DNA of 64,000 nucleotides from an uncultured Thermoleophilia bacterium (GCA_963773325.1 CAVZAI010000002.1:1532274-1596273); one strand, 5' to 3'; numbered from the stretch's first letter, positions 11,184 through 62,104 are shown. Notes: a model not told the origin generated them from the letters alone. Numbers and translations: made by a program.

Positions 11184-11618
11184 TCACTCGGCGAGTTGCT
11201 CGAAGCCCGATCCGGCCGGCTGGAACCGCGCAACCGAGAAGCCCAACAGCAGTGGGACGGCGATGGCGAACACCGCCAGCATCCCGATCAGGACAATCAG
11301 CGCGTTGCCGCGGGTGCCGTCGTAGATGAACGCGTAGCCGATCATGCCCGCGATCACCAGGTAGGCCAGGAGCGCCCAGCCGGCAACCAGGCGGAACGTG
11401 CCCCAGGCGAAGTCGTCGAGCCGGGCAAGGAGGACGACGTCGACCAAGAGCACCACGATCGCGAGGACCAGCAGCACGACCGCCGGCACGAGCGAGATGC
11501 TGCCGGGCAGGTTGGCCGCCATGTAGATGCCGCCGATGATCACCAGCACCATGGCGAGATCCGCGAGCTTGTCGATGGGCGGGAAGCTGCGTTCCTGCGG
11601 TGCGGGGGCCGTCGTCAC
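11184..11618 (-). CDS. integral membrane protein (4 predicted TM), unknown function
   Basis: The GTG start overlaps the stop of the upstream gene (GTGA). Hydrophobic helices throughout (MVLVIIGGIYMAANL..., LVPAVVLLVLAIVVLLV...). Confidence 0.6.
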   Translation of the reverse strand: MTTAPAPQERSFPPIDKLADLAMVLVIIGGIYMAANLPGSISLVPAVVLLVLAIVVLLVDVVLLARLDDFAWGTFRLVAGWALLAYLVIAGMIGYAFIYDGTRGNALIVLIGMLAVFAIAVPLLLGFSVARFQPAGSGFEQLAE

Positions 11619-15255: not shown

Positions 15256-16896
15256 CTAGTTGAGGGCCTTGGGCAGCTGCGCGGGGCGCCGGGGCGGGGT
15301 GACCTGGACGAAGACCGCGATGCTCCGCACGTCGATGCGGGTCGCGCGGGCGCCCGAGGCCGCGATGGCTGCCTGCAGCCGGTCGGCGGGCGGCCCGATC
15401 GGCGCCGCGAATGCCGGATCGGGATCGCGCGCGACCGCGGCGGCCATCGCGGGGAAGCGGTTGACCCCCGGCGTGCCGACGACGTCGATCGCGCCGTTCG
15501 ACGCGAACGCGATCGGGTAGGCGAGCCAGTAGTTCGCGTAGAGCGCGTGGACCCCGTGGGCCTCGAGCGCCGCAGCCACCGCGGGCATGTCTTGGGTGCG
15601 GATCGGCAGGCGGTCGACGTGCCCGGTGGTCTCGCCACGCGCGTCGGCGGTGCGCATGGTGACGATGCTCGTGCCGAGGATGGCGGCGACCAGCGCCACG
15701 CCGACGGCACCCGCAGCGCGGCGGGGCATCCGCAGGACGCCCCATGACAGCCCCAGGGCCAGCAGCGGGTAAAGGACAAACAGGTAGCGCGGCTCGCGCG
15801 TGTAGACCGTGAAGGCCGAAAAGCCGTACAGGACGGCGAACAGCACGAACCCGGCGAGCACCAGGTCGATCGGTGCGCGGTGCGCGGTGTGCAAGCGCAC
15901 CAGGTCGACCAGGCCGCGCCAGCGGACCGCGATCCCTGCCGCCAGCAGGGCCAGTGCGGCCACGAGTACCAGCGCCTCCGGCAGCCAGCCGAGTGCCGGT
16001 GCGCCGGAGAACGGTCGCAACACCCCGAGAAACATGCCGAGCACCGGGTGCAGCAGGCCGTCGAGCTTCGATCCGAACGAGCCCGTCGAGGCGCCGTTGC
16101 CCTGGGCCCAGGGCGGCGTCCAGCCGTGCTGGAGCTGATACGCGATCGACGGTGCGTAGCCGACCAGGACCCCGGCGAGGCCAACCGGCAGCAGCCGGAC
16201 GATCGACCCCCGGGTCGAGGCGAGCGCCCAGAGCACGGCGGGCACCACCAGGAACAGGGTCAGGGTGCTCTCCCAGAGGCCGAGCCCGAGGCACAGGCCG
16301 AGTCCCGCCGCCAGCCAGCGGCTGCGCGGCGCGGCCGGGTCGAGGCGGAGCGCCACCAGCAGCGCCACCACCCCGATGACCTGCGCGGCCCCGTACGAAC
16401 CGTGGCTGTGGATGCCCTTGTAGACGTTGTAATAGGGGCCGGCTGCGTAGATCGACGCCGCCAGGACGCCGCCCCAGGGCGATCCGGTCACACGCCGTCC
16501 GAGCAGCCCGACGAGCAGGCAGGTCACCCCGCACAGGGCGACCTGGACGAGCCGCAGGGTCGTCGGGGTGCTCGGGAGCACCCAGAGGACCGCCGCCTGC
16601 AAGTACTGCTCGAGCGCCCCCATGTAGTTCGAGCCGGCAAGGTACGCGAACCACTGCCCGTGCAGGATGTCGCGGGCCATGATCCCGGTGACGGCCTCGT
16701 CGGCATCCAGGCGTCCGATGGTCGAGACCAGCGCCACTGCGCGAATCGCGACGCAACCGGCGACCGCGATCGCGAGCACCACGGCCGGCAATAGGGTCCA
16801 GGCATCGCGGGCGGGCACCTCCGCCGCGACGTTATCGGGCACCGACCCGGCGGGGCCGCGCCGCGGTCGGCTCGCGAATCCCAGAAGACCGGTCAT
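15256..16896 (-). CDS. GT39/ArnT-like (PMT_2) membrane glycosyltransferase
   Basis: Internal ATG MTGLLGF. About 12 TM helices. The N-terminal loop DADEAVTGIMARDILHG is typical of dolichyl-phosphate-mannose/ArnT-type transferases. Confidence 0.7.
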   Translation of the reverse strand: MTGLLGFASRPRRGPAGSVPDNVAAEVPARDAWTLLPAVVLAIAVAGCVAIRAVALVSTIGRLDADEAVTGIMARDILHGQWFAYLAGSNYMGALEQYLQAAVLWVLPSTPTTLRLVQVALCGVTCLLVGLLGRRVTGSPWGGVLAASIYAAGPYYNVYKGIHSHGSYGAAQVIGVVALLVALRLDPAAPRSRWLAAGLGLCLGLGLWESTLTLFLVVPAVLWALASTRGSIVRLLPVGLAGVLVGYAPSIAYQLQHGWTPPWAQGNGASTGSFGSKLDGLLHPVLGMFLGVLRPFSGAPALGWLPEALVLVAALALLAAGIAVRWRGLVDLVRLHTAHRAPIDLVLAGFVLFAVLYGFSAFTVYTREPRYLFVLYPLLALGLSWGVLRMPRRAAGAVGVALVAAILGTSIVTMRTADARGETTGHVDRLPIRTQDMPAVAAALEAHGVHALYANYWLAYPIAFASNGAIDVVGTPGVNRFPAMAAAVARDPDPAFAAPIGPPADRLQAAIAASGARATRIDVRSIAVFVQVTPPRRPAQLPKALN

Positions 16897-16973
16897 CGGC
16901 TGGGAGGGTACGCGGACGACGGCACCCGGGGAGCGGGTACGGTCGATCCTCGGTGACGGCGCATGCGCGGCAT

Positions 16974-17609
16974 TCAGGCGCCGCCAGCTGCGCGCAGCCC
17001 AAGTCGCGCCGAGACCCGGTCGATCCAATCCCGGCGGCCGTTGGCTTCAAGGGTGGTGATGCCAAGCCGCTCGGCCGCCCGCAGGGCCTGGGGGCGGTCA
17101 TCGACGTAGAGCACCCGCTCGGGCGGCGGCCCGAGCCGTGTCAGCTGGGCGAACGCCCGCGGATCGGGCTTGACGAGTCCCGTGAGGCTCGAGATCAGCA
17201 GCGGATCGAGCACGTCGACCAGCCCCGCCGCGTCGAGGACCGGCAGCACCCATTCGGTCCGCTGGTTGGACAGGATGCCGACGGGGACCGCCGCCGCCCA
17301 GCCGCGGACCATCGCGATGTGGTCGAGGGGGCGCAGCATCGACGTGGTCATCTGGGTCTGCCAACGCCCGGTCTGGACCGGCACATCGGCAAACGCCGTG
17401 AATGCCGCCCAGAACTCCTCGAGGCTCATGCGCCCGCCCCAAAACGGGGCGAACAGCCGGGTGTTGAAGTGCCGCCACAGCTGCTGATCGGTCTTGGCCG
17501 AATGGGCCGCCAGATCCGCGATCATCTGGGGCATCGCCGACGGCAGGACGACGCCGCCCAGATCGAGGATCAGGTGCTCGACCGGGGGCGTGTCGATTGC
17601 CGTGCTCAT
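16974..17609 (-). CDS. HAD-superfamily hydrolase
   Basis: This is the C-terminal 211 aa of ORF 16974..19019, from MSTAIDTPP. Motif I-like ILDLGGVV, a later VGILSN, and YVDDRPQ. Confidence 0.7.
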   Translation of the reverse strand: MSTAIDTPPVEHLILDLGGVVLPSAMPQMIADLAAHSAKTDQQLWRHFNTRLFAPFWGGRMSLEEFWAAFTAFADVPVQTGRWQTQMTTSMLRPLDHIAMVRGWAAAVPVGILSNQRTEWVLPVLDAAGLVDVLDPLLISSLTGLVKPDPRAFAQLTRLGPPPERVLYVDDRPQALRAAERLGITTLEANGRRDWIDRVSARLGLRAAGGA

Positions 17610-35534: not shown

Positions 35535-38309
35535 ATGGCAACCCACGCACCGACCCATCAGCACGCCGATCACAGCCACGGGGACGGGCCGCATACGCCC
35601 CCGAAGCCGCTGAGCTACTGGTGGAAGCGCGCGTTCGTCTGGACGCTCGTGTCGGTGATCTTCGCGTTTGGCATCACTTGGTTCGTGCGGTGGGTGGCGG
35701 GCTTCCCCACCCTGTGGAACGCCGGGGTCTACGCGACCGTCGCGTTCAGCCTTGGTGGTATCGGCTTCGTCATCGGCATCGGCTGTTTCGACTGGTGGTG
35801 GGACTACCTGCGCGGCCGCCGCGTCGGGTTCGAGGACCACTCGATGCACGGGGCGACGTCCTGGAAGGACTACCTACGCCCGAACACCGATCACAAGGTG
35901 ATCGGCATCCAGTACATCGTCCTCACCTTCATCGCGTTCGTGATCGCCGGCCTTTACGCCGAGGGCGTCCGCGCGGCGCTTGCGCAGCCGGGTGAGCAGT
36001 TCGTCAACGGGCAGACCTACAACGGCCTGTTCAGCATGCACGCCACGATCATGATCTTCGGGTTCGTGATCCCCGTCTTTTCGGGCTTGGCGAACTACGT
36101 CCTGCCGCTCATGATCGGCGCCAAGGACATGGCGTTCCCGCGCCTGAACGCGCTCTCGTTCTGGCTGTTGGTCGTCGCCATCGCGCTGCTGGCGTTCGCG
36201 CCGCTGTTCGGGGCCTTCTCGTCCGGCTGGACCGCGTATCCGACGCTGGCGCTGCAGGGCACCACCGGCACGACCATGTTCGAGATCGCTATCCAGTTCG
36301 CCGGGGCGTCGACCATCGCCACGGCGTTGAACTTCATGGTCACGATCGTGACCATGCGGGCGCCGGGCATGACCGTCTGGCGGATGCCGCTGCTGGTCTG
36401 GGCGAACGCGACCACCTCGGCGCTCGTGGTGTTCGGCACTCCCTTCATCGCCGGTTCGCAGCTCATGAGCCTGCTCGACCGCGTGATGGGCACCAACTTC
36501 TTCAACGCGGCCAACGGCGGCGATGTGATCATGTACCAGCACGTCTTCTGGTTCTATTCGCATCCGGCCGTCTACATCATGATGCTGCCGGGCTTCGGGA
36601 TCGTCTCGGAGGTGATCGCGACCTTCTCGCGAAAACCCATCTTCGGCTATCGCGCGATCGCGTTCTCGACCGTCGCGATCGCGATCCTGGGCTTCGGCGT
36701 CTGGGCGCACCACATGTTCGTGTCCGGCATGGCGGCGTGGATCCGGATACCGATGATGATGACCACGATCCTGATCGCCGTCCCGACCGGCATCAAGATC
36801 TTCTCGTGGCTCGGCACGATGTGGAACGGCAAGATCCACCTCAAGACGCCGATGCTCTTCGCCATGGGGTTCATCGTCACGTTCACGATCGGCGGCCTGT
36901 CGGGCATCTACCTCGGGTCGCTGCCGACCGACATCGCGGTGCACTCGACCTACTTCATCGTCGCGCACATCCACTACGTGTTCTTCGGCGGCAGCGTCAT
37001 GACGATCTTCGCCGGCACCTACTACTGGTTCCCGAAGATGACCGGGCGAATGTACAACGAGAAGCTCGGCCTGTGGCACTTCTGGCTGACGTTCATCGGC
37101 ATGAACCTCACGTTCTTCCCGATGCACTGGCTCGGCACCCAGGGCATGCCGCGCCGGGTGGCCGACTACGCGCCGCGGTTCGCGAACGTGAACCTGTTCA
37201 TCTCGATCGCGAGCCTGCTCATGGTGGCCGGGACGGTCGTGTTCTTCTACAACATGATCTACTCGTGGGCGAAGGGCCCGAAGGCCCCGTGGAATCCCTG
37301 GCGCGGACGCACGCTCGAGTGGATGGTGTCCTCGCCGCCGAGCCTGTTCAACTTCGACGTCACCCCGCAGGTCGTCGGTGGCCCGTACCAGTACGGCATC
37401 CCCGGTGCCCGCCACGCGGTGGTCTTCGCGGGCCCCGAACTCGGCGGTGGCGAGCTGACCGAGACCGACAAGCGGCTCGTGCTCATCGTGGCCGACCAGG
37501 CTGTCGCGGCGCCGGCCCTCATCGAGGACATCCGCCGGCGCAACGCCGAGGGCTACTGGCGCTTCACCTACGTCGTGCCGAGCACGGTCGAGGAGCACCG
37601 GGCCGCCGAGCGGCGTCTGCAGACCGCACTGGCCGTCCTCGCGGAGTCCGGCATCGACGCCAACGGCACCGTGGTCGACGCCCCGCCGATGCAGGCCATC
37701 GATGCGGTCATGCGCGAGGACACCGTCCACGAGATCATCCTCACCACATTCCCGGTCGGGTCCTCGGCATGGCTTGACCAGGACCTCGTGGACCGCGTCC
37801 GCAAGGCCACCGGCGTCGGCGTCACCCACCTGACGATCCTGCCGAGCGAGGCTCGCGCGACGGTCGCCTCGTCGACGGTCGAGAAGGTCGCCATCATCGC
37901 CAACTACGGCATCGACGACCCGGGCCTGGCCGAGCTGGTCCAGCGCCGCGCCGACGCGCAGCCGCTGACGGCGATCGTGCTCTGCCCGCTGTCGCTGGAG
38001 GGCGCTGCGAACTCGCCCGAGGCCGAGGCGGCGCGCGCGGTGGCCTCACACCGGGCCGCGACGCTGATCGCCCGACTGCAGGAGGCCGGCATCCCGACGC
38101 GCGGCGAGACGATCGACGGCTCGGTGACGACCGCCGTCAGGGTGGCGCGCACGGCGCACCACGCCGACACGGTACTGCTGGCGACCCGTCCGGGTGATCA
38201 GCTCGAGATCACCGACGACATCATCAGGGCGGCCGGGACGATGACCATCGAACAGGTGTCGACCGACGGGACGACCTCGACCGCGTCGGGCGCGTCGGAG
38301 GGCCGATGA
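35535..38309 (+). CDS. ctaD: cytochrome c oxidase subunit I fused to two C-terminal USP-like (Rossmann-like alpha/beta) modules
   Basis: Residues about 40-620 form a canonical subunit I (WFYSHPAVYIMMLPGFGIVSEVI, HHMFVSG, VAHIHYVF). Residues about 646-924 form a soluble extension with two similar modules (LVLIVADQAV... and KVAIIANYGI...). Confidence 0.9.
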   Translation: MATHAPTHQHADHSHGDGPHTPPKPLSYWWKRAFVWTLVSVIFAFGITWFVRWVAGFPTLWNAGVYATVAFSLGGIGFVIGIGCFDWWWDYLRGRRVGFEDHSMHGATSWKDYLRPNTDHKVIGIQYIVLTFIAFVIAGLYAEGVRAALAQPGEQFVNGQTYNGLFSMHATIMIFGFVIPVFSGLANYVLPLMIGAKDMAFPRLNALSFWLLVVAIALLAFAPLFGAFSSGWTAYPTLALQGTTGTTMFEIAIQFAGASTIATALNFMVTIVTMRAPGMTVWRMPLLVWANATTSALVVFGTPFIAGSQLMSLLDRVMGTNFFNAANGGDVIMYQHVFWFYSHPAVYIMMLPGFGIVSEVIATFSRKPIFGYRAIAFSTVAIAILGFGVWAHHMFVSGMAAWIRIPMMMTTILIAVPTGIKIFSWLGTMWNGKIHLKTPMLFAMGFIVTFTIGGLSGIYLGSLPTDIAVHSTYFIVAHIHYVFFGGSVMTIFAGTYYWFPKMTGRMYNEKLGLWHFWLTFIGMNLTFFPMHWLGTQGMPRRVADYAPRFANVNLFISIASLLMVAGTVVFFYNMIYSWAKGPKAPWNPWRGRTLEWMVSSPPSLFNFDVTPQVVGGPYQYGIPGARHAVVFAGPELGGGELTETDKRLVLIVADQAVAAPALIEDIRRRNAEGYWRFTYVVPSTVEEHRAAERRLQTALAVLAESGIDANGTVVDAPPMQAIDAVMREDTVHEIILTTFPVGSSAWLDQDLVDRVRKATGVGVTHLTILPSEARATVASSTVEKVAIIANYGIDDPGLAELVQRRADAQPLTAIVLCPLSLEGAANSPEAEAARAVASHRAATLIARLQEAGIPTRGETIDGSVTTAVRVARTAHHADTVLLATRPGDQLEITDDIIRAAGTMTIEQVSTDGTTSTASGASEGR

Positions 38310-50157: not shown

Positions 50158-50520
50158 CTACGAGATGACCTTGTCCTTGATCGCCTGGTATTCCTCCGGG
50201 GAGATCGCCCCCTGGTCGAGCAGCTGCTTGGCCTGCGCGATCTGGTCGGCCGGTGCCAGCCCGGACGCGGCGCGCAAGCGGTCGGCGTCCGCGAGCTGGG
50301 TCTTGACGGCGCGATCGGCCATGCCGTGACCACGCACGATCAGGTAGATCAGCACACCCAAGAAAGGCAGGATGATCAGCAGGATGATCCATCCAGCCTT
50401 GCCAGCGCCGGAGACGTCATGGCTGCGAAACAGGTCGAAGACGACCTGGAAGAAGATGATGATCCACACCACGAAGGCGAAGACGACCAGCATCTCCCAC
50501 AGGAAATGCCAAAAACTCAT
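50158..50520 (-). CDS. PLDc_N-domain membrane protein with C-terminal SHOCT domain
   Basis: Internal ATG MSFWHFLW with GGGAGG upstream. Two TM helices with the GWIILLIILPFLGVLIYL pattern. SHOCT tail QAKQLLDQGAISPEEYQAIKDKV. Confidence 0.75.
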   Translation of the reverse strand: MSFWHFLWEMLVVFAFVVWIIIFFQVVFDLFRSHDVSGAGKAGWIILLIILPFLGVLIYLIVRGHGMADRAVKTQLADADRLRAASGLAPADQIAQAKQLLDQGAISPEEYQAIKDKVIS

Positions 50521-50683
50521 TCGGGTCCTCCCGTTGCTCGGTTCTCGCGCGAGGTGGAGTGCACCCATGTGGGCGGGGCACAGGCGCAAGTCGACCCAGC
50601 ATAGCTGTGGGAACGGACCGTCCGACCGGGCCGGCGGCGCTGTTGCGGAAATTTGACCGACCGTTGGCGAATGCGGTTGCGAA

Positions 50684-51701: not shown

Positions 51702-52395
51702 CTACCACGTGCCCACGGCGAACTGCAGCAGCAGGCCGGTACACGCCACCGTCGCCCAGGTCAGCGTACCGAGCGCAAGCGGCCGGTACCCGGCGCGGCG
51801 CATGGTGCCCGGCCCGATGGCCGCGAGCGCGACGGTGATCGACACGATGACCGGGCTCGACAGCGCGGCATGCCACCCGGCCGAACGCCCCCGAGGCTCC
51901 CGAGCATGGCGGCGGCGATGAACCACACCAAGAACCATGGGATGACGGCGTGTCAGCGCACGCGCCGACCGGCATCGTGTCGCCGGGCGACGAACCCGAG
52001 GGCGGCGATCGCCGGGATGATGATCGTCGTGCGGGTGAGCTTGACGATCACCGAGTGCACACCGGCGGCATGCCCGAACGCATACCCGGTCGCGACGACA
52101 GAGAAGGTGTCGTTGACCGCGGTGCCCGCCCACAGCCCGAAGCCGCTCTGGGTGAGCCCCAACAGATGGCCGCTCGGCGGGAAGATCAGCACCGCGGTCA
52201 GGTTGATGACGAAGACGGTCGACATGGCGAAGGCGATCTCGATCCCCCACGCCTCGATCACGCCCGCGGGGGCGGCGATCGCCGACGCACGGCAGATCCC
52301 GGTGCCGATGCCGACGAGCGTGCGCAGGTTGCCCGAGATCCCGAGGGCGCGCCGGACTAGGAGCAGCCACACCCCGCACTGCGCAGCACCGATGG
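51702..52395 (-). pseudogene. YeiH/UPF0324-family membrane protein remnant
   Basis: The family core GIGTGIC(R)ASAIAAPAGVIEA...FGLWAGTAVNDTFSVVATG...VKLTRTTIIIP is present, but the first about 100 aa are missing. There is an in-frame TGA at 51953-51955, followed by ...IPWFLVWFIAAAMLGS in the same frame. A frame change near 51880 is needed to reach the C-terminal ...ITVALAAIGPGTMRRAGYRPLALG... Confidence 0.55.
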
Positions 52396-52842
52396 CTACG
52401 CGCAGGTCGTGGTCGTGATCGTCCGTTTTGCGCTGGCCGTCGACTGCGTACTCGCGCCCCACGCGGCGTCGGTGAGCGTGGTGGTGACGGCGAACCAGTA
52501 GCCGGTGCCCCCTGAGGTCCCGGTCAACGACGCGGTCGTAAACGGTGAGGTGCCAGTTCCGAGCGAGGTCCACGGCCCGGTCGCAGAGGTGGTTGAGTCG
52601 TAGACGGTATAGCTCGCGGCACCGGTCTCGGCGGTCCAGCTGACGGTGACCTTCGTTCCCGTCGCGCACGTCGCCGTGACTCCGGTCGGCGCCGGTGTGG
52701 CAGTCGGTGTCTGGGCCTGGGCCTTGCTGCCAGCGGCGAGCGATACGGTCCACGAGGTCGCGACGGCGATGCCGGCGGCGCCAAGCAGCGTCACGGCGAT
52801 CGCGAGCCCAACAGCCGTTCGTGAGTCGTGGCGGCGTGTCAT
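52396..52842 (-). CDS. membrane-anchored small protein with an FN3-like Thr/Ser-rich domain, partner of paralog 1
   Basis: 148 aa. One TM helix followed by ATSWTVSLAAGSKAQAQ, the same motif as in the paralogs. Then a VTVSWTAETGAASYTVYDS...GPW pattern. Cys at the domain start and at the penultimate residue. Lies 35 nt downstream of paralog 1. Confidence 0.6.
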   Translation of the reverse strand: MTRRHDSRTAVGLAIAVTLLGAAGIAVATSWTVSLAAGSKAQAQTPTATPAPTGVTATCATGTKVTVSWTAETGAASYTVYDSTTSATGPWTSLGTGTSPFTTASLTGTSGGTGYWFAVTTTLTDAAWGASTQSTASAKRTITTTTCA

Positions 52843-52877
52843 CGAGTCAGCGGTTCATTCGGACGGCAGTCCGTTCG

Positions 52878-53537
52878 CTAGGAGGTCCAGGCGTCGGTCG
52901 CGGGGCTTACGGTCGGCGTCCCGGATCCGGCGGTTGCGGTAATGGCGGTGAACGACGGCATCGCGAAGTACGTGCTCTTGCAGCCCGTCGGTGCCGACGT
53001 CCCCATCGTGACGTCGTTTGTGAACGTCACCGTCAGCGTCGAGTTGGCGCCGACCACTAGCGCCGTGGTGAGGGTGTGCGAGGTGCCGCTGACTCCGGTC
53101 GCGTAACGCCAGGCCACCGTTCCCTGCGCCGCAGTGCAGTTCGTATTCAGCGTCGACAGCGACGAGTTGGTGTAGCCCGTCGCGTAGGTCGTGCTCGTCG
53201 GCAGGTTGACAGCTGTGATCGTGACGGGCGCGGTGCTCGTGTTCGTGATCGTCACAACGGCGTCGCCGGACGCGCCGGGGTAGACAAGGTTGACCGGCGA
53301 GGGGACCGCAGACGCGGTGATCGTCAGGTTTGCGACGCTCGCGGCCCGGCCCTGGCCCTTGGATCCGCTGTTGAGCCCGACGGTCCAGTGGGTGGCGCCA
53401 AAGGCCACGCCGGCGACCGAGAAGACGGCCGCGACGGTGGCCGCGACCCGCCATGCGCGGGTCCCGCGGGCGCGCCGAAACGCCTGGTACCGGGGGTGTT
53501 CCTCTCGTGGCTTCCGCGGACGGGAGAGGGGTGACAT
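52878..53537 (-). CDS. paralog 1 of a membrane-anchored beta-rich two-Cys protein family (unassigned, TasA/camelysin-like only by architecture)
   Basis: 219 aa from ATG 53537. Basic N-tail SPLSRPRKPREEHPRY, a TM helix, ATHWTVGL..GS, PGASGDAVVTITN, LPTSTTYATGYT, Cys...Cys, and a C-terminal TDAWTS. Confidence 0.7.
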   Translation of the reverse strand: MSPLSRPRKPREEHPRYQAFRRARGTRAWRVAATVAAVFSVAGVAFGATHWTVGLNSGSKGQGRAASVANLTITASAVPSPVNLVYPGASGDAVVTITNTSTAPVTITAVNLPTSTTYATGYTNSSLSTLNTNCTAAQGTVAWRYATGVSGTSHTLTTALVVGANSTLTVTFTNDVTMGTSAPTGCKSTYFAMPSFTAITATAGSGTPTVSPATDAWTS

Positions 53538-53629
53538 GGGCAATGGTCTCGAGTGGCCTTCGGTACGTCGCGAACGACGGTCGTGCTCCGGGCGCGGGGG
53601 TCGGCCTGGAGATGGGCGACAGGGGGGAT

Positions 53630-53651
53630 CCGCTCATCACACCTATCGGCA
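53630..53651 (-). promoter_or_regulatory. conserved upstream element of paralog 1 (TGCCGATA-N8-GAGCGG)
   Basis: In minus orientation the TGCCGATA octamer ends 106 nt upstream of ATG 53537. The same octamer and spacing occur upstream of paralog 2, and GCCGATG occurs at 106 nt upstream of paralog 3. Confidence 0.35.
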
Positions 53652-53852
53652 TCCGGAGTTCGTTCTTGAGCTATCAATCCCTGCAAAATGGCGGTTTTTT
53701 ACGACTGCATCACACATTGGGACCGCCGGTGGTAAGGCCGCGGCGCCCTCGTCTCGCGGGGTCACACGTGGACCGGGGGGATCCCGCCCGGACCCGATCT
53801 TTGTCCCGGTGGCCAAGGAGCGCGAGCTGCCCGGGCCTTAGCCTGCCTTGGC

Positions 53853-55622
53853 GTGCGTGATGTCCCTGCAATTCGTGAACTCCGCTTCCTTCAGCGCCTC
53901 GCCCTGGCGGCCGGATCGACCCTTGACGGGGCGACGCTGGTGAACCTCGTGATCGCGGAGACCACCGAAGCGACGGAGACAGATGTCTGCTCGGTGTATC
54001 TTCTCGCGGCCGACGGCGAACATCTCGTTCTTGCCGCGACGAACGGGCTCTCTCAGCGCGGCGTCGGCCGCGTCCGGCTACGGATTGGTGACGGGGTGAC
54101 GGGCTGGGCGGCGGAGGCGCGGGCCCCTGTCGTGGTCCCGGATGTTCGGGTCGAGCCGCGGTTTCGGTGGCTGCCAGAGGTCGATCAGGACCGGTTCGTG
54201 TCGATGTGCTCGGTACCGATCATCTCCGGCGATCGGCTCGTCGGCGTGCTGAATGTCCAGACCGACCACCCCCGCGACTTCGGCGACGGCGATGTCGGGC
54301 TCCTGTCGGCGATCGCCGCCCACGTCGCCGGGGCGCTCGAGCGCACCGAGCTGCAGGGCCGGCTCGAGAGCCGCGTCGCGGAGCTCCACCGATCCGAGGA
54401 GATCCACAAGCGATTCACGGACCTCGCGCTCGCGGGCGCCGGACTCGATGCGATCTGCGCCGCCGTCGCTGCGCATGCGGGCGCCTCGGCTGCCGTCTTC
54501 GACGACGACGGCGAGCGCCTCGGCGCGAGCCCCGGCGCCGGGCTTCCGGACCGGATGGCGGGGGTCTCGGCGCCGGGACGACGCGACGACGGTATCGCGG
54601 TTGTGCCGATCCGGGCGGGCCAGGAGACCCTCGGCTGGCTCGCCATCGGTCCCGGCGGCGGTGCCGACTCGCACAGCCGGCGCATGGCCATCGATCACGG
54701 GACGACGGTGATTGCGCTCGACCTCATGCGCGAGCGCGCCGCGGCGGAAGCCGACCGGCGCCTTCGCGCCGACCTGTTAGACGAGCTGCTCGCGGCGCGG
54801 GCCGGCACGACGGACGCCTCGCGGCTCGCGCGGAAAGCCGCGCGTCTCGGTCTGCGCATCCGCGGACGCGTCTGGGCGGTCGTCATCGCGCCCGATGATC
54901 CGGAGGGCGCGCGGGCGGTCGCGACGGACCCCATCGCCCAGCGCGTCAGCCGAACGCTCGCCGACGCCATCGACGTGCCCGGCGGACAGGTCGTCGCGCG
55001 TGGGACGACCTTCGTCCTGCTGGTTCCGGGTGAGGCGGACCTGGCGCGTGTCGAGCAGATCGCGCGGGCGGCCGCCGATGCCGCGCAGGCACGGACGGGC
55101 GGATACGGCTTTTCGGCCGGGATCGGAAGCGGCGCCGGGGGTCCTGGCGAGCTTCGCCGCCTGGTCTCCGAAGCGGAGCAGGCACTCGCTCTCGTGCAGC
55201 GGGGGAGCGGTCGCAGCGAGGTGCAGGCCTACACGCGTCTCGGAGTCGATCGGCTTCTCCTGGAGATCTCCGACAACGAGTGCCTGGGCGCGTATGTCAA
55301 GGAGTGGCTCGGGGATCTCGTCAGTCACGATGAGCGGGGACCCGCGGCGGCTCCCCTCATCGAGACTCTCGAGGCGGTCGTTGCAGAGGGCTGGAACCTG
55401 CGGGCCGCCGCGCGACGGCTCAGCCTCCACACCAACACGCTCCACTATCGCCTCGGACGGGTTCAGGATGTCTCCGGGAGAGATCTCGACGACCCGACGA
55501 CCCGTCTCGCGCTCGCGGTCGCCCTCCGCGGGTATCTCCTGCTCGGAGCGCTGCGCGGCGCCTCAGGCCACCCACTGGGCGCCGAGGCCGGGCTGACGCC
55601 GCGGTCCGCCGCCGAGGGCTGA
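53853..55622 (+). CDS. GAF-domain sensor fused to a PucR/CdaR-family C-terminal HTH transcriptional regulator
   Basis: N-terminal GAF (VYLLAADGEHLVLAATNGL...VPIISGDRLVGVLNVQ). C-terminal PucR HTH (NLRAAARRLSLHTNTLHYRLGRVQDVSGRDL). Divergent from paralog 1. Confidence 0.85.
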   Translation: MRDVPAIRELRFLQRLALAAGSTLDGATLVNLVIAETTEATETDVCSVYLLAADGEHLVLAATNGLSQRGVGRVRLRIGDGVTGWAAEARAPVVVPDVRVEPRFRWLPEVDQDRFVSMCSVPIISGDRLVGVLNVQTDHPRDFGDGDVGLLSAIAAHVAGALERTELQGRLESRVAELHRSEEIHKRFTDLALAGAGLDAICAAVAAHAGASAAVFDDDGERLGASPGAGLPDRMAGVSAPGRRDDGIAVVPIRAGQETLGWLAIGPGGGADSHSRRMAIDHGTTVIALDLMRERAAAEADRRLRADLLDELLAARAGTTDASRLARKAARLGLRIRGRVWAVVIAPDDPEGARAVATDPIAQRVSRTLADAIDVPGGQVVARGTTFVLLVPGEADLARVEQIARAAADAAQARTGGYGFSAGIGSGAGGPGELRRLVSEAEQALALVQRGSGRSEVQAYTRLGVDRLLLEISDNECLGAYVKEWLGDLVSHDERGPAAAPLIETLEAVVAEGWNLRAAARRLSLHTNTLHYRLGRVQDVSGRDLDDPTTRLALAVALRGYLLLGALRGASGHPLGAEAGLTPRSAAEG

Positions 55623-55742
55623 CGCAGGACGCCGGCGCGGTGATCCACGCGTCGGTGACGCGACGCGGCCGCTCGCGCCGGCCACGAACCGGCGCCACGT
55701 TGCCGACGTCGACCACATGCACGGGAGTCGTGCGCGGTGCCC

Positions 55743-55782
55743 ACGACAGGGGGGCGGGCCAAGAAACCCGCCCCCCTGTCGT
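55743..55782. terminator. strong hairpin between the convergent regulator and paralog 2 (putative bidirectional terminator)
   Basis: A perfect 16-bp stem, ACGACAGGGGGGCGGG (55743-55758) with CCCGCCCCCCTGTCGT (55767-55782), and an 8-nt loop CCAAGAAA. Confidence 0.6.
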
Positions 55783-55848
55783 CGATCTGAGCTGCGACGG
55801 GCGCAGGGCCCGAGGGGTGATCCCCCGAGACCCCTGCTCGTCAGATGG

Positions 55849-56523
55849 TTACGAGGTCCAGGCGTTGGTCGTCGGGCTCGTGGTTGCCGTCGCGCCAGCG
55901 GTCTCCGAGGCGGTCACGCCCGTGAGCGACGGAAGTGAGAAGTACGCCGCTTCACATGCTGCCGGCGCCGCTGCCGTCATGCTGGCGTCGTTCGTGAACG
56001 TCACGGTGAGGCTGGAGTTGGCGCCGATCACCAGCGGGGTGGTGAGGGTGTGCGGGTTCGACCCGGCCGAGTAGTTCCAGATGACGTCGGACTGGTTGGC
56101 ACCGACGGTCGAGGTGCATCCAGAGATCGCACCGGTGAGGTTGGACGCCGTGTAGCCCGTCGCATAGGTCGTGGAGGACGGCAGGCTGAGGGCGGTGAGA
56201 GTCACCGCCACGGCGTTCGGGTTGGTGATCGTCGCGACGACGTCGCCGTTGCCGCCCGGGAAGAGCAGGTTCGTCGCCGCCGGCGATGCGACGGCGGAGA
56301 TCGTGAGGTTGGAGACGGTGCCTGCCTGGGCTTCACCGCTCGAGCCGCCGGTGAGGCCCACGGTCCAGTTCGTGGCCGCGAATGCGACCGCCGCGGTGAG
56401 CACCGTGCCGGCCACGACCGATGCAACCCGTACCGCGCGAGGCCGCCGCTTGCGCAGATCCTGGTAGTACCAGGGGGTCTCCTCCCTGGCTTTCCGGAAG
56501 AACGAGAGGGGTGACTTGGGCAT
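55849..56523 (-). CDS. paralog 2 of the membrane-anchored beta-rich two-Cys protein family
   Basis: 224 aa from ATG 56523. SPLSFFRKAREETPWY, a TM helix, ATNWTVGL..GS, PGGNGDVVATITN, LPSSTTYATGYT, Cys...Cys, and a C-terminal TNAWTS. By eye about half the residues are identical to paralog 1. Confidence 0.7.
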   Translation of the reverse strand: MPKSPLSFFRKAREETPWYYQDLRKRRPRAVRVASVVAGTVLTAAVAFAATNWTVGLTGGSSGEAQAGTVSNLTISAVASPAATNLLFPGGNGDVVATITNPNAVAVTLTALSLPSSTTYATGYTASNLTGAISGCTSTVGANQSDVIWNYSAGSNPHTLTTPLVIGANSSLTVTFTNDASMTAAAPAACEAAYFSLPSLTGVTASETAGATATTSPTTNAWTS

Positions 56524-56541
56524 GGGGGTACCACTTTCCAT

Positions 56542-56990
56542 TCATCGCGTGACAGTTGCTGCGTTGGGCGAAGGGGGGGGTGCATGCCCGCGCGGCGAGT
56601 GGCACCTGAGCGAACCACTCGCGTGAGATATCGGCAGCACGCGCTGGCACTTGAGCCGCGTTCCCGGCCGATGACCGGCGAGATGCAGGGCCTGTTCGCC
56701 GCCGCCAGCCTCGGCCCGGGCCGCGACGCGGTCGACGTCGTCGACATACAGATGCAACATCAGCGTCGCGGTGTCCGACGCGTCAGGCGCCACCGCAGCG
56801 AGATTCGGGACGTCCAGGCCGAGGATGATCAGCGAGTCGCCGATCGTCTGCTCGAAGCGCAATACCGGTCGGTCGGGGGTTCGCGGGCGGCCGCCCCGTT
56901 CGGTTGGGCCGAAGACCGCGACGTCGAACGCGATTGCCGCGTTGACATTTGGCCATGGACACAGCCGTGGGTGATTGCCGGAGATGCGCG
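56542..56990 (-). pseudogene. VOC/glyoxalase-family gene remnant
   Basis: In-frame translation gives ...NVNAAIAFDVAVFGPTE...RFEQTIGDSLIILG...LMLHLYVDDVDRVAARAEAGGGE, which is a VOC N-terminal pattern. There is no canonical start upstream of this, and the C-terminal half is unrecognisable. The ORF stops one codon before the longest paralog-2 ORF start. Confidence 0.4.
56615..56636 (-). promoter_or_regulatory. conserved upstream element of paralog 2 (TGCCGATA-N8-GAGTGG)
   Basis: The octamer ends 105 nt upstream of ATG 56523. Confidence 0.35.
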
Positions 56991-57070
56991 CGGTCAGGGG
57001 TCATTCCGGCCGTCGCGTCAGGTAACCGGTCCCAACCGCTGGCGTACGCCCGTGCCGGCGCGAGTGGCGG

Positions 57071-57433
57071 CTAGGCCTGCCCGAGTCGGTGGCCGCTCCA
57101 CTCCCGCACCAGCAGGGCGAGCGCCGAGCTGTCCCGCGCGCCGTGGCGCATCACGACGCCCAGCTTGGGATGCGGGTGCAGGATCTCGGCACTGCGCGCC
57201 GGGTGCTGCGGGCTCGACTGGCCTTCGATGAAGATCCCCCCGTTGCAGCAGGAGCAGATGAAGCGGGCGCGGGCGAAGCGCGTCGCGGGCAGGTAGGCCA
57301 CGCAGGCGCCGTCGGGCGTGCTCTCCGGGAACGCGATGTCGCGGCCCGGGTCGAACTCCGTCCAGCCATGCACGTCCTCCAGGTGTGCCCGGATCTCCTC
57401 GAGCGCTGCACGGGTCGGTGCCTGCTGGCGCAT
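57071..57433 (-). CDS. hypothetical cytoplasmic protein (Cys-rich motif CSCCNGG)
   Basis: ATG 57433 with GGAGG 7 nt upstream. 120 aa. No family recognised. Confidence 0.55.
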   Translation of the reverse strand: MRQQAPTRAALEEIRAHLEDVHGWTEFDPGRDIAFPESTPDGACVAYLPATRFARARFICSCCNGGIFIEGQSSPQHPARSAEILHPHPKLGVVMRHGARDSSALALLVREWSGHRLGQA

Positions 57434-57748
57434 CGTCTGGCCTCCTTGCTGAACGAGTGCGTGGCGCGATCTAGACAGGTTGTCGGCGGCCGCTGGGCCG
57501 CCCATAACCCCGCCCGAAACGGTTTGCGAAAAACTTCACATCTCGTGCCGTTTGACACGATCTCGGCGTCGCTCAGCGCGCCGGACGCGCGCCACGAGGC
57601 GGTGGGGAGCGGGTCGGAATCGCGGCGGATCTGCCTACGGGGGCGGTAGATTCGCTGCCCGAAGCCGGGCTCGACGACGGGTCACGCGGCCGTTGCCCGC
57701 GCGAGCAGGTAATGTCCACCGTCGAGGTTGCCAAGCCGAGGAAGGTAC

Positions 57749-58357
57749 ATGGCCGAGCAAGAGGGCATCTTCGATGCCTTGGCGAGCAACGTAGACGGAC
57801 TGACGGTCTCGGAGCTCGTCGGGCTGCTCGGCGCCTCCGACAGCCAGGTGCGGCGCAGGCTGTCGGCACTGGTCGCCGCTGGTGCCGTGACGACGCTCAA
57901 AGACGACCCCGCCGGCCCGGGGCGGCCGACGCTGCGCTTTCGCGTCTCGCCGACGACCAGTGGCTGGCCCGAGCTCGTCCGGATTCTCGTCGCGGTCGTC
58001 GGTACCGACACCGACCACGAAGCCGCGATGCTCACGCTCGCCCGGCGACGTGGCGCGGAAATGGCGAGCGGGGAGTTCCCGCACGGGGTCGTCGACACGA
58101 TGGCTCGGCTCGGATTCGCCCCGCGCGATCGGTCCTCCCGGCACGATGCCCGCGAAGGCGTCTACCGCGTCAGCTTCCAAAGCTGCCCGTTTCGTGACGC
58201 GGTGACCGGCGAGGATGGCCGCACCGTGTGCACGCTGCATCGCGGTCTCGTTGAGGGCCTGAGCGCGGCGCTCGGCGGACGGCTCGACGACTTCGACCCG
58301 CGCGACCCGATCGTGGCCGGCTGCGAAGCGCAACTGCGGGCAGCCCCGGCCGGGTAG
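57749..58357 (+). CDS. ArsR/SufR-like winged-helix regulator with a C-terminal Cys-containing domain (COG2345-like)
   Basis: ATG with AGGAAGG upstream. wHTH LTVSELVGLLGASDSQVRRRLSALVAAG. C-terminal CPFRDAV...VCTLHRGLVEG...GC. Confidence 0.7.
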   Translation: MAEQEGIFDALASNVDGLTVSELVGLLGASDSQVRRRLSALVAAGAVTTLKDDPAGPGRPTLRFRVSPTTSGWPELVRILVAVVGTDTDHEAAMLTLARRRGAEMASGEFPHGVVDTMARLGFAPRDRSSRHDAREGVYRVSFQSCPFRDAVTGEDGRTVCTLHRGLVEGLSAALGGRLDDFDPRDPIVAGCEAQLRAAPAG

Positions 58358-58443
58358 CCCGGCGCCGGAACTGCTCAGTCGGCAGGTGGATCCCGATGAC
58401 CGGGAGCGACGATGTCGGCTGTACCGACCGCGTGCGGTCGGGA

Positions 58444-58640
58444 ATGGCCGACGAGGCCAACGACCGGATCAGCCGATCCGAGGACCGCACGGTGCGCATC
58501 GTGCGGGGCGCGGTCGAGGTCGAACACGACCCGTCCGGGGCCCTCGTGCGGATCGTGGGCGGCCTGCAGAACGTCACAGCGCCCGAGCCGGTCACCGGCC
58601 GGCCAGCCGAGCTGCTCGCACGCACGCGTCGGCGTCCACA
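58444..58640 (+). pseudogene. possible PAS-domain gene fragment
   Basis: About 60 codons with high third-position GC encode ...EDRTVRIVRGAVEVEHDPSGALVRIVGGLQNVTAPE, which resembles the end of a PAS fold. No full-length gene surrounds it, and the 3' part degenerates and runs into paralog 3. Confidence 0.3.
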
Positions 58641-58725
58641 CTCTCGCCGGGACTCCGGACGGGGCGTCGTCGGGAGAGTCCGCGGACGGGTCAGGCCGGC
58701 ATCCGTTGCTCCTGCCGGACCCGCG

Positions 58726-59394
58726 TCAGGGTGACGGGCGGATCCACGTGTCCACGGCGGGGGCTGACGTTCTCACGTGGCCATCGGTGCGTGCGCCGAC
58801 GCCCGCGAGCCTCGGCATCATGAAGTAGGTCGCCTCGCAGGCGGCCGGCGCGGTCGCCTTCATGTACACGCCGTGCGCCATGGTGACGGTGACGGTGTGG
58901 TGCGCGCCGATGACCACGGGCACCGCCAACCGGGCGGCGATCGTGCGGGCTCGCGCGGATCCGTTCCACACGACACCCGAGGTCGCCGCGGAGCATCCGG
59001 CGCGCCGGGCCGTCTGGGCGCTGCTCGTGAACCCGGTCGCGTATGTCGTGTCGGACGGCAAGTCGAGGGCCGTCACTCGGACGCTGACGGTGTTGGGGTT
59101 GGCGATCGCAACCACGACGTCCCCGGTGCCACCCGGATAGACGGCCCGCACGCCCGAAACATGCGCGGCCGTGATCGACACGAGGTTGCGAGGGCCGGTG
59201 TGGCCCGAGGCAGCGGCACCGATTCCAGGCGCGTGACCGGCGGCCCAGGCCACGCCGGCGATGCCCACGGCGCCCACCACCACTCCGGCGAGACCCGTCC
59301 CCCAACGGGTCTTTCCCCCACGCCGCTTGCCGGGGTGGCGGTGGACCGCCGAACGGACAGTCCGGCGACGGTGTGCGAATGATGAAGCGGTCAT
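58726..59394 (-). CDS. paralog 3 (divergent) of the membrane-anchored beta-rich two-Cys protein family
   Basis: 222 aa from ATG 59394. Basic N-tail, a TM helix, PGGTGDVVVAIANPN, LPSDTTYATGFT, Cys...APAACEATYFMMP, and VDTWI near the C-terminus. The post-TM motif has diverged (VAWAAG). Confidence 0.65.
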   Translation of the reverse strand: MTASSFAHRRRTVRSAVHRHPGKRRGGKTRWGTGLAGVVVGAVGIAGVAWAAGHAPGIGAAASGHTGPRNLVSITAAHVSGVRAVYPGGTGDVVVAIANPNTVSVRVTALDLPSDTTYATGFTSSAQTARRAGCSAATSGVVWNGSARARTIAARLAVPVVIGAHHTVTVTMAHGVYMKATAPAACEATYFMMPRLAGVGARTDGHVRTSAPAVDTWIRPSP

Positions 59395-59500
59395 CACTTC
59401 CACGGTCGGCCAGGCTGCCGGGGTCCCCTAGTTTCCACCAAAAAACCCCAGCAGAACGTACAAGATGATCGCCGCGCGTTCCAGTCGAGATGTCGGGAAC

Positions 59501-59507
59501 CATCGGC
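59501..59507 (-). promoter_or_regulatory. GCCGATG element upstream of paralog 3
   Basis: Ends 106 nt upstream of ATG 59394, the same spacing as the TGCCGATA elements of paralogs 1 and 2. Confidence 0.3.
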
Positions 59508-61028: not shown

Positions 61029-62104
61029 CTAGTGCCCGAATCGGACTTCGGGGAGCAGACGATGCAGCCAGGCCGGCCGCCACCATGCCCAGCGTCCGGC
61101 CACGCGCAGCGCCACCGGCACCAACAGCAGCCGCACCAGCACGGCATCGAGGGCGACGGCGACCCCGAGGATGATGCCCATCTCCTTCGGCGGAAGCGGG
61201 CCGGAGAGCGCGAAGGTGAAGAACACCGCGACCATGACGGCGCCCGCGGCAAGGATGACCCGCCCCGAGTGCGCCATGCCGCCGACCGCCGCCTCGTGCG
61301 GGTCGTGCGAGTGATCCCAGTGCTCCTTTGCCGAGGACAACAGGAACACGGTGTAGTCCATCGAGATCGCAAAGATCATCGCGAAGAAGAACACCGGCCC
61401 CAGGCGTCGAGGAACCCTTGGGACTGGAAGCCCAAGAACCCGGCGAGATCACCGTCTTGGAAGACGAGGCGCGCCACGCCGAACGCCGCGCCGGTGGCCA
61501 GCAGGCTCGTGAGCACCCCGATCGCCGCGACAATCGGGGCCTGCAACGCGACCAGCAGCAGGATGAATCCGAGGGCGAGGATTACCGCGATCACGATCGG
61601 GGTGTACTTCGACAGCGACGCCGCCAGATCGTGGTTCTCCGCAGCGGCTCCACCAACGAGGACGCCGGCCGGAAGCTCGGTCCGGAGCCGGTCGATCGTG
61701 GCGCCGGTGACCGGTGACGAGGGATCGGTCGTTGGAATCACCTGGAACAGTGCGAGGCCGTTCTGGCCCTGCAGCGCCGGAGTCACGCGCGCGACCCCGG
61801 GGTCGTGCTCGGCAACCCGTGCGGCCTGCGCCATCGCTTGCGGCGGACCGACGAGCTGGAGCGCACCCGGCGCACCGGTACCGAACGCGGTCTGGACCTG
61901 AGCGTATCCAACGCGCGACGAGTCGCTCGCCGGTACGACCTTGATGGACGGCATGCCGGTCTTGAGGCCGAACACCGGAACGGCGAGCGCGAGAAGGGCC
62001 AGCAAGGCCGGGACGCCATAGAGCGCCGGTCGTCGCCACAGGCGCTCGGCCCACGCCGCGAAGCGCGTGGACCTGTGCTCGCCGCTGTGGGCCCACGGCA
62101 ACAA
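61029..62104 (-). pseudogene. MMPL/RND-type transporter, C-terminal half only, with a frameshift
   Basis: ORF 61376..62104 (linker, TM, periplasmic domain, TM helices) and ORF 61029..61394 (FFFAMIFAISMDYTVFLL...WWRPAWLHRLLP) are consecutive parts of one MMPL second half. They are joined by a 1-nt frame change near 61385-61395 (GFLDAWG|PVFFFAM). No first half lies upstream. Confidence 0.65.

Follow-up and report, generated by a model that had tools for sequence, protein, structure and literature searches.

Filaments of the TasA superfamily have been described as machine-free (PMC9674648, PMC12337348, 10.64898/2026.01.04.697558). In TasA the N-terminal segment is disordered in the monomer and serves as the donor strand in the fibre (PMC9674648), and TapA shares this N-terminal element and primes the assembly of TasA (PMC10151520). 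The archaeal Tafi assemble by N-terminal strand donation (PMC12337348), as do AbpX and CanA (10.64898/2026.01.04.697558), and a mechanism of N-terminal loop insertion was proposed for BsaA (PMC11580942). We analyzed a 64,000 nucleotide (nt) stretch of DNA from an uncultured Thermoleophilia bacterium (GCA_963773325.1 CAVZAI010000002.1:1532274-1596273, the window) that carries three paralogous genes for predicted secreted proteins with two Cys (copies 1, 2 and 3, named M1, M2 and M3) and a gene for a 148 amino acid (aa) FN3 partner (P). Profile searches indicate that the M paralogs belong to a genuine family of secreted proteins that is large and has not been described. Fibres that form without a machine from secreted beta-sandwich subunits are a kind already known; what appears to be new is the M family and its FN3 partner with a common N-terminal module, here called the N-terminal extension (Nte). 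The best explanation that we can offer for this combination is a surface fibre or adhesin built by strand donation, which we put forward tentatively and at somewhat less than even confidence.

The M and P proteins share a number of properties with TasA and TapA of Bacillus subtilis, a system with SipW, and with CalY of Bacillus cereus: a secreted subunit of ~20-26 kDa, a Gly/Ala-rich signal and an aromatic residue at the junction. As in TasA/TapA there is a disordered N-terminal segment, a second protein with the same N-terminal element, and no ATPase, usher or sortase. Unlike TasA, M has no detectable homology to that family, has a conserved Cys pair and lacks Lys and Arg; its partner is an FN3 protein and the locus has no sipW-type gene. 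The archaeal filaments (Tafi with subunits TafA/E, tip TafC, anchor TafF and regulator TafB; AbpA/AbpX; CanA; the Sulfolobus threads) resemble the M system in combining a major subunit with a variable tip, an anchor made of a single transmembrane (TM) helix and a subunit-like part, and a regulator (PMC12337348; 10.64898/2026.01.04.697558). Chaperone-free N-terminal strand donation, proposed here for M, and long signal peptides (54 aa in AbpX) are further likenesses. In the archaeal loci there is a dedicated signal peptidase gene, accompanied or not by DUF5305, which the M loci lack; similarity of fold was not detected, and the hosts of M are bacterial and confined to Actinomycetota.

In the BsaA/BsaB/BsaC system of Clostridium perfringens BsaA is a Gram-positive matrix protein with a disordered N-terminal loop that is inserted into the following subunit, and the system is genetically linked to type IV pilus genes (PMC11580942), comparable to two loci of an M sister family described below (L094 and L095). 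BsaA subunits are locked by Lys-based isopeptide bonds while mature M has no Lys, and the bsa operon contains sipW while M loci do not. The chaperone-usher pili (Fim, Pap, Caf1, Saf) share with the proposal for M and P the idea of an N-terminal extension of alternating hydrophobic residues, with subunits that have it, subunits that lack it (in those pili, the tip adhesin with its pilin domain) and chain terminators, and they share an Ig-like fold. They need a periplasmic chaperone and an outer-membrane usher in diderm hosts, however; neither gene is found here and the structural matches to these pili were noise. The sortase pili of Gram-positive bacteria are likewise made of major and minor or tip subunits with Ig-like domains, and occur in Actinomycetota, but M and P have no LPXTG (M ends in ...SPATDAWTS and P in ...TTTCA) and no pilin-motif Lys, and there is no sortase gene in the window.

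The M family, its partner P and their common N-terminal extension

Homologs of M2 fell into at least 1,444 clusters at 90% identity in a collection of 5.8 billion proteins, all unnamed or "hypothetical" and none with a Pfam domain. Searching 1.84 billion representatives with an M profile resulted in 789 clusters (50% identity) at an expectation value (E) <= 1e-3, 95 of them at E <= 1e-30, and 179 M loci were confirmed in GTDB species genomes. Counts out of 80 loci given below rest on the best 80 of these 179 loci. All 80 were from metagenome-assembled genomes (MAGs) of Acidimicrobiales/Acidimicrobiaceae and Thermoleophilia (Solirubrobacterales, Gaiellaceae, Conexibacteraceae) recovered from Danish soils, Stordalen Mire, SPRUCE peat and similar sites. 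M2 itself matched contigs of the Thermoleophilia MAG MFD01872.bin.4.195 (L010; 100% in the best segment) and a European Nucleotide Archive contig (ERZ25039517:contig_46965). The gene is frameshifted in the GenBank MAG contig (L010 10001-10671) and intact in the window. The earlier note on this DNA, made from the sequence alone, could not place the paralogs in any family, and this held for the family as a whole: none of 42 diverse members, down to 24% identity, matched Pfam or NCBIfam beyond noise. The M profile found nothing among PDB sequences even at E 10, and no M homologs were found on plasmids. Further searches of protein databases and plasmids found no cultured hosts and no named homologs, the matches being unnamed metagenomic proteins.

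The mature M sequences have median counts of 0 Lys, 0 Arg and 2 Cys along with a few Asp and Glu, and Thr, Ser, Ala and Gly together make up 57% of their residues. Such a composition would be in keeping with a structural protein exposed outside the cell, and may be an adaptation to the acidic peat and soil habitats of the MAGs. It also means that trypsin-based proteomics would miss M entirely. The two conserved Cys are predicted to form a stabilising disulfide. In one Acidimicrobiales subclade (L034 11292-11720, L022 ~11100-11400, P0046, P0110, P0116) the M open reading frame (ORF) runs ~140 codons further upstream, in frame and without a stop. This extension carries a conserved C-x2-C-x10-H-x3-H ... 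QPDxLAxM-P/A-RGPFY and is moderately coding-like, with a third-position GC of 0.68 vs 0.82 in the core. Its conserved Met is the start used by the M genes of the window (MPKSPLSFF), and it could be a cytoplasmic zinc-finger-like domain, an upstream ORF or a conserved leader.

The structure of M was predicted with AlphaFold2. A first model of full-length M with 41 close homologs was poor (predicted local distance difference test, pLDDT, 63.5) and its Foldseek matches were meaningless, and it was therefore superseded by a model of the mature part (175 aa, 94 diverse sequences). Mature M2 was modelled with a pLDDT of 92.4 and a predicted template modelling score of 0.82 as an all-beta structure of ~10 strands and one short helix, bearing out the beta-rich ectodomain that the earlier note had proposed. 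Residues 1-24 (ATNWTVGLTGGSSGEAQAGTVSN) formed neither strand nor helix and had a pLDDT of 62-76. When this model was compared to 350,542 PDB chains using Foldseek the best match had an E of 0.2. The weak matches were generic immunoglobulin (Ig)-like domains (glycosidase accessory domains, transglutaminase barrels, complement MG domains, DUF1425, WxLIP, TRAP and an archaeal pilin), with SafA and FaeG also among those at noise level; TasA was outside the top 50 and CanA (9hdi) had a probability of 0.03. A library of viral structures resulted in nothing significant, and generic Ig-like folds were all that was seen in the two libraries (E >= 0.1). As neither library contained a significant match, the modelled M domain is a beta-sandwich without a recognisable close relative.

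Profile comparison identified the domain of P, described as FN3-like in the earlier note, as a true FN3 domain. A profile of 34 orthologs matched PDB 3mpc at E 3.8e-12 and FN3 domains of titin and neogenin at 1e-10 to 1e-4. The Pfam fn3 model matched the P of the window alone at E 8e-4, under the gathering score, and a P variant in locus L044 at E 1.6e-6, over it. Cys residues flank the FN3 domain, one at its start and one at the penultimate position, and an Nte of the form [TS]xW[TV]VxLxxGSxxE/Q lies between this domain and the signal peptide. P starts 35 nt beyond the M1 stop, as the earlier note had stated, and M followed by P on the same strand was found in 56 of the 80 loci with a median gap of 70 nt, making the M-then-P pair a conserved unit. 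Two or more M copies within 10 kb were present in 23 of the 80. The survey of homologs and neighbourhoods that the earlier note had proposed thus returned both a large family and a conserved gene pair.

Position statistics relative to the invariant Trp placed an Ala at -6 in 34 of 39 M sequences, Tyr or Phe at -5 and Ala at -4 in 37 of 39, followed by A/V-T-N-W. In P the corresponding junction was A-x-A followed by [TS]-x-W. A-x-A is the canonical signal peptidase I site. Distant M members have ordinary signal peptides of 30 residues before the same junction, for example MKIPRPFKSSSRKLKALSAVSGAVLAAGTAYA directly before ATNW. The conserved junction together with the ordinary signal peptides of relatives suggests that M and P are probably cleaved and released, not anchored, with a mature N-terminus of ATNW... 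in M and TSW... in P. The "membrane anchor" of the earlier note is therefore probably a cleaved signal peptide, as A-[YF]-A is nearly invariant before ATNW and some relatives carry a short signal peptide of the ordinary type. Export of Tafi is dependent on the twin-arginine (Tat) pathway. Tat export was also considered for M and P: RR pairs are present with an inconsistent fit to the consensus, and the Cys pairs argue for Sec export. An anti-sigma-like reading (tail, TM helix and sensor domain) was rejected because the tail is only ~30 aa, there is no linked sigma factor gene and the AxA is conserved.

The signal peptide and the Nte are common to M and P, a feature absent from the earlier note's description of the partner. 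An hhalign comparison of M with P gave 93% (E 3e-7), limited to these two elements. The consensus of the junction and Nte in M and P is AxA followed by ATNWxVGLxxGSSGExQ, and T51, N52, W53, V55, L57, G60, S61, E64 and Q66 are nearly invariant in the close M family. The element has ~20 residues with an alternating hydrophobic W-x-V-x-L pattern. A six-frame regular expression scan of 1.5 Mb (86 loci and the window) found it in M and P genes only, apart from two chance matches. It is conserved yet unstructured in a model with a pLDDT of 92, which is expected of a segment that folds only against a partner. The common architecture that the earlier note gave to all three copies stands for the domain and its Cys, but not for this region, as M3 lacks the NWxVGL..GSSGE motif found in M1, M2 and P.

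Modular variants and a possible route of assembly

Relatives of M and P combine the Nte, the M domain and the FN3 domain in different ways. In L022, L034, L036 and L050 the gene behind M encodes a protein of ~600 aa with a signal peptide, three repeats of ~150 aa (no Pfam match), an internal NWxV...GEA and an FN3 domain with its Cys pair, indicating that the Nte travels with FN3 and need not adjoin the signal peptide. P versions with added C-terminal domains occur in L044 and L090. M domains without an Nte were found in several forms. P0189 (L087) and P0192 have a Pro/Thr-rich stalk behind the M domain, then a TM helix at the C-terminus and a conserved tail, and in L087 a canonical M gene and one for a GAF-GGDEF protein directly precede the gene for this anchored form. 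None of the 86 loci searched contained the RIDRxDPKL tail of the C-terminal anchor. L012 2926-3660, P0205 and P0218 lack the Nte and end in a Pro-rich tail, and M3-type orthologs, with the domain kept and no Nte, occur in L011, L012, L013, P0196, P0209 and P0213. A 1,291-aa protein of L090 has an M-like domain at its N-terminus, no Nte, and then nine Big_3_5 Ig repeats; its gene is next to those for three M proteins, two P variants and one 160-aa protein. As judged from these sequences the superfamily is made up of proteins with handle (Nte) and domain, with the handle only and with the domain only, and the domain-only proteins carry membrane anchors or long Ig stalks. The extra C-terminal domain of the P variant in L044 (10835-11875) weakly matched the Pfam family Enas of endospore appendages (E 0.003, under threshold). 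In P0225, perhaps a natural chimera and perhaps an artefact of assembly, the same Enas-like domain stands in for the C-terminal half of M.

The 160-aa protein of L090 belongs to a sister family of 131 clusters with no Pfam match. It aligned to M in hhalign at 94% (E 1e-7) over 139 columns that take in the full domain with both Cys. Across the sister family the signal peptide is almost invariant (MKRFMNKKVAAIGLAAGLALGAAGAAFA followed by YFTxxGSGxG) while the mature domains are just 27-36% identical (alignment A10, e.g. L095 10001-10480), implying that something recognises this signal peptide specifically, for instance a specialised peptidase or a targeting factor. In L094 (1-9000) and L095 (1-8400), both large contigs, complete type IV pilus gene sets, with N_methyl pilins carrying GFTLIEL, a T2SSE ATPase, a Peptidase_A24 prepilin peptidase, DUF7305 and GT87 glycosyltransferases, stand beside a cluster of small subunit, Ig adhesin, M and P genes (10001 onward). 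This neighbourhood recalls the type IV pilus-dependent secretion of BsaA and BsaC in C. perfringens.

The domain make-up of the M and P relatives suggests a self-assembling surface fibre or adhesin. In such a system M1, M2, M3 and P would be exported by Sec and most likely cut by signal peptidase I to give small extracellular proteins stabilised by disulfides. M would be a ~150-aa beta-sandwich free of Lys and Arg behind an unstructured Nte, and the Nte would act as an assembly handle that docks as a strand onto the sandwich of a neighbouring M. The proposal of an intermolecular docking strand draws on the amphipathic W-x-V-x-L pattern, on the Nte being the most conserved yet unstructured part, and on its presence in the proteins that would need attachment to M. 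Repeated docking would produce a polar chain or fibre at the cell surface with no dedicated machine. P, with the handle and an FN3 domain instead of an acceptor domain, would end the chain or decorate it where an acceptor is free, and the handle-less M variants (M3 here, anchored and adhesin-fused forms elsewhere) would form the opposite chain end. Expression would be set by adjacent sensor regulators, which in the window would be the GAF-PucR gene and the pair of a helix-turn-helix (HTH) gene and a Cys-rich ORF.

Type IV pilus genes were absent within 10 kb of all 80 M loci. A motif like that of signal peptidase I was seen in 1 of the 80 (L042, 8 kb off), and no peptidase cluster recurred among them. 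With no dedicated peptidase or pilus ATPase linked to M in any of the 80 loci, and neither sortase nor usher in the window, assembly would be spontaneous after Sec export. We infer the surface location, strand donation and polymerisation of M from these features. A more specific version, that M and P are an undescribed class of machine-free fibre in soil and peat Acidimicrobiia and Thermoleophilia, with Lys/Arg-free, disulfide-locked beta-sandwich subunits whose fold family lacks any solved relative, an ATNWxVGLxxGSSGE handle, handle-only FN3 or adhesin caps and handle-less anchored or Ig-stalk starters, and with an origin independent of the TasA superfamily, chaperone-usher, sortase and type IV pili, is doubtful as a complete statement.

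Alternative explanations

The main rival is that M and P are displayed at the surface without polymerising, either as monomers or as a heterodimer of M with P, that would serve as adhesins, as binding proteins or as parts of the envelope, with the Nte as a signal for sorting, retention or localised secretion. We consider this rather unlikely. Several observations weigh against a strand-donation fibre and some of them speak for this rival. The modelled M monomer looks like a complete sandwich of ~10 strands, and Foldseek found no likeness to fibre subunits, as donor-strand pilins and TasA-type subunits did not rise above noise. The cytoplasmic tail shows conservation (MPKSPLSFF...PWY; MKIPRPFK in distant members), which is unusual for a discarded signal peptide and recalls motifs that place secretion. 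This extreme N-terminus may have a function of its own, and the N-terminus could be retained. The logic of the modules is equally well explained by the Nte as a cell-envelope retention motif, and M variants that have their own C-terminal TM anchor and no Nte are expected if the Nte retains. An anchor-type subunit was not found nearby in most loci, and sensor regulators are common in these genomes, making their adjacency weak evidence. On the other side, a motif of 16-20 residues is short for non-covalent wall binding, and the Nte is far from the N-terminus in the 600-aa fusions and still joined to FN3. The presence of M paralogs within a locus and of handle-only and acceptor-only variants is also more economically explained by subunits that dock to each other, the arrangement proposed for a strand-donation fibre.

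A second possibility is that M belongs to the TasA superfamily (TasA/CalY, BsaA, AbpA/AbpX, CanA, Tafi) as a branch that has diverged very far, and that it shares the donor-strand mechanism of this superfamily and relies on a SipW-type peptidase whose gene lies at another place in the genome. The order of elements is the same in M and TasA (Gly/Ala-rich signal, aromatic junction residue, first strand, L-x-PG-x-GD strand) and hhalign pairs these regions. The sister family has AAFAYFTxxGSG at the junction and its C-terminal D...NQDACQG...L.F aligns with D...QNvFQGdsi.L.F of TasA, and published TasA-superfamily loci also have tips, anchors and regulators (PMC12337348; 10.64898/2026.01.04.697558). 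The kinship with TasA and camelysin raised in the earlier note failed in all of the comparisons made, however. The models Peptidase_M73, TIGR04088 and TIGR04089 did not match at E <= 0.1 for 42 M members, the window proteins or 8 proteins of distant loci. In hhalign against an alignment of TasA and six annotated TasA/CalY genes from Bacillus plasmids (A11; shallow, with an effective number of sequences of ~2) M reached 3.5% and the sister family 19%; M reached 2.7% against a single TasA sequence, and the range for the sister family was 13.7-19%. The Foldseek search with the pLDDT-92 model missed TasA, with CanA near zero as given above, and a SipW-type peptidase gene adjoined none of the 80 loci. 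Because the low-scoring hhalign alignments pair topologically equivalent regions, we keep a very remote relation to TasA as an improbable explanation.

It is more improbable still that M forms a two-dimensional lattice like an S-layer or sheath with P as an accessory or anchoring protein. The acidic, Lys/Arg-free and Thr/Ser/Ala-rich composition, the several paralogs and the lack of an assembly machine would fit such a lattice, but a ~17-kDa subunit is small for an S-layer protein, SLH and other wall-anchoring domains were unmatched, and the handle-only and acceptor-only variants argue for polar and linear assembly.

The least probable reading, which we hold to be very unlikely, is that a machine related to type IV pili or type II secretion handles M, P and the small subunits as pilin-like substrates, which would be built into a pilus or pushed through the wall by one: it is favoured by the sister-family clusters of L094 and L095 lying ~1-2 kb from the prepilin peptidase gene of a pilus cluster that has a PilB-type ATPase and true N_methyl pilins as well, by a sister-family signal peptide far better conserved than the globular part, by one member labelled PulG-like by the Joint Genome Institute, by a weak Foldseek match to an archaeal type IV pilin (8fk7, probability 0.63, E 0.5) and by the precedent of BsaA/BsaC secretion depending on type IV pilus genes (PMC11580942), but a class III signal of the G|FTLIE type, present in the neighbouring true pilins, is absent in M, P and the small family (the regular expression G[FAVIL]T[LM][IVL]E found nothing in M or P), N_methyl was unmatched, the conserved part of M lies behind the hydrophobic stretch and not inside it, and type IV pilus genes (prepilin peptidase, PilB ATPase, PilC platform) are absent from the window and within 10 kb of the 80 M loci.

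Gene layout, neighbouring genes and significance

The window has a GC of ~70%, and all ORFs that the earlier note had listed for the M/P region are present where it placed them (Table 1). Its observation of three homologous paralogs on the minus strand was confirmed, with M1 53% identical to M2 (E 4e-67) and 36% identical to M3 (E 4e-35), the three spanning 36-53%. The sequence blocks it had listed (PGxxGD, LP(T/S)xTTYATG, two invariant Cys, APxxC and a C-terminal W) are present in the alignment of the paralogs, as is the tail SPLSxxRKxREExPxY common to M1 and M2. Its interpretation as a surface system is partly supported. A family-profile scan of the whole window found no further M copies. 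No conserved leader or promoter and no sigma-70-like site was seen upstream of the three M copies. The region between M1 and the GAF-PucR gene is 315 nt long and contains an AT-rich stretch. In the remaining 55 kb are genes for cytochrome c oxidase, for the biogenesis of haem and of cytochrome c, and for unrelated metabolism, and no signal peptidase, sortase or pilus machinery was found among the genes of all 64 kb. A prophage or defence origin was rejected, as phage genes are absent nearby and the chromosomal contexts are stable and varied.

Table 1. Coordinates of the M/P locus and of the genes between its members, counted from the first letter of the window
Feature	Position	Strand	Basis or remark
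P, 148 aa: signal peptide, Nte of the same type (TSWTVSLAAGSKAQAQ), FN3 and Cys pair	52396-52842	-	
Nte of P	52708-52758	-	behind predicted A-V-A cleavage site
M1 (copy 1), 219 aa: signal peptide, Nte (ATHWTVGLNSGSKGQ) and two-Cys beta-sandwich	52878-53537	-	ORF; family profile score 301 bits
Mature part of M1, predicted	52881-53396	-	
Nte of M1	53337-53396	-	right behind predicted A-F-G cleavage site; motif scan, position statistics
GAF-GGDEF_2-PucR-HTH transcription regulator	53853-55622	+	Pfam matches
M2 (copy 2), 224 aa	55849-56523	-	of the copies, nearest to the family consensus
Mature part of M2, predicted	55852-56376	-	
Nte of M2 (ATNWTVGLTGGSSGEAQAGT)	56317-56376	-	best-conserved stretch of the close family
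Cys-rich ORF, predicted cytoplasmic	57071-57505	-	no family match in Pfam or NCBIfam
Winged-helix regulator, 209 aa	57728-58357	+	Pfam HTH_IclR 4.6e-6
M3 (copy 3), 222 aa, divergent paralog with N-terminus ...GVAWAAGHAPGIG...	58726-59394	-	both Cys and beta-sandwich kept, NW extension gone

The GAF-PucR gene is divergent from M1 and convergent with M2. Its identity and orientation were as described in the earlier note, with Pfam matches all above gathering (GAF PF01590, 4.5e-20; HTH_30 PF13556, 5e-20; GGDEF_2 PF17853, 5.4e-14). A dedicated linkage to M did not hold up: only the nearest Thermoleophilia relatives (L008, L010 and L013) have the gene between M2 and M1, and it is absent in L011, L012 and all Acidimicrobiales loci. 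In ~15 loci a LuxR-type regulator with four PAS domains or a GGDEF-EAL protein (L016) is directly upstream of the M-P pair, in ~10 loci a GAF/HisKA_3 kinase with a response regulator is upstream, and in L087 a GAF-GGDEF protein. A sensor regulator nearby is recurrent, with no particular one constant. This gene context is typical of surface or biofilm genes. Regulated, condition-dependent expression of M and P is plausible.

The HTH gene and the Cys-rich ORF form a divergent pair between M2 and M3, in the position and orientation given in the earlier note. The ArsR-like assignment of the regulator fared less well, as HTH_IclR was the best Pfam match and the matches to ArsR and MarR were weak. 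The likely start of the Cys-rich ORF is M25 at ~57433, resulting in a protein of 120 aa. The pair is conserved between M copies in six Thermoleophilia loci at 72-99% identity, and the Cys-rich protein (CxxxxxxxxxxxxxxxCSCC) and its HTH neighbour are better conserved than the flanking M genes in these loci. The two may be a dedicated regulatory pair.

A YeiH-type membrane protein gene (51758-52372, minus strand; PF03601, E 3e-29; overlapping ORF 51953-52753) starts 24 nt past P. It has an in-frame stop after which the frame is lost, indicating a pseudogene or a long-read assembly error, and a homolog behind P was found in L013 only. At 61029-62104 and ~45.6-46.9 kb genes are split relative to Pfam models, with MMPL in two ORFs and GlutR present only as its dimerisation domain. 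The split and frameshifted genes suggest indel errors of long reads, and apparent pseudogenes should be treated with caution. The cytochrome oxidase subunit I gene (35535-38309, plus strand) encodes 924 aa with the COX1 domain at residues 123-560 only, suggesting a fusion or a long extension, and the cox cluster (34.7-39.4 kb) has an unusually low first-position GC and a third-position GC of 0.92-0.98 as compared to its neighbours. Two minus-strand ORFs of 590 aa (15256-17028) and 205 aa (11615-12232) have good coding statistics and no Pfam match. A 643-aa protein (899-2830, plus strand) is recognisable by its C-terminal SHOCT domain only, and a second SHOCT/PLDc_N protein is encoded at 50158-50589.

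Acidimicrobiia and Thermoleophilia are abundant in soil and peat and almost wholly uncultured, and to our knowledge their cell-surface biology is essentially unknown. The M and P cassette is small (two genes, ~1.1 kb) and easily synthesised, so the question of assembly can be settled without culturing the hosts. If the strand-donation model is wrong, there would still be a large new family of secreted domains and a common N-terminal sorting or assembly motif worth naming. If it is true, M and P would be the first candidate fibre or adhesin system for Acidimicrobiia and Thermoleophilia, and a new family, apparently independent by sequence and structure, among the strand-donation filaments that form without a chaperone, usher, sortase or ATPase.

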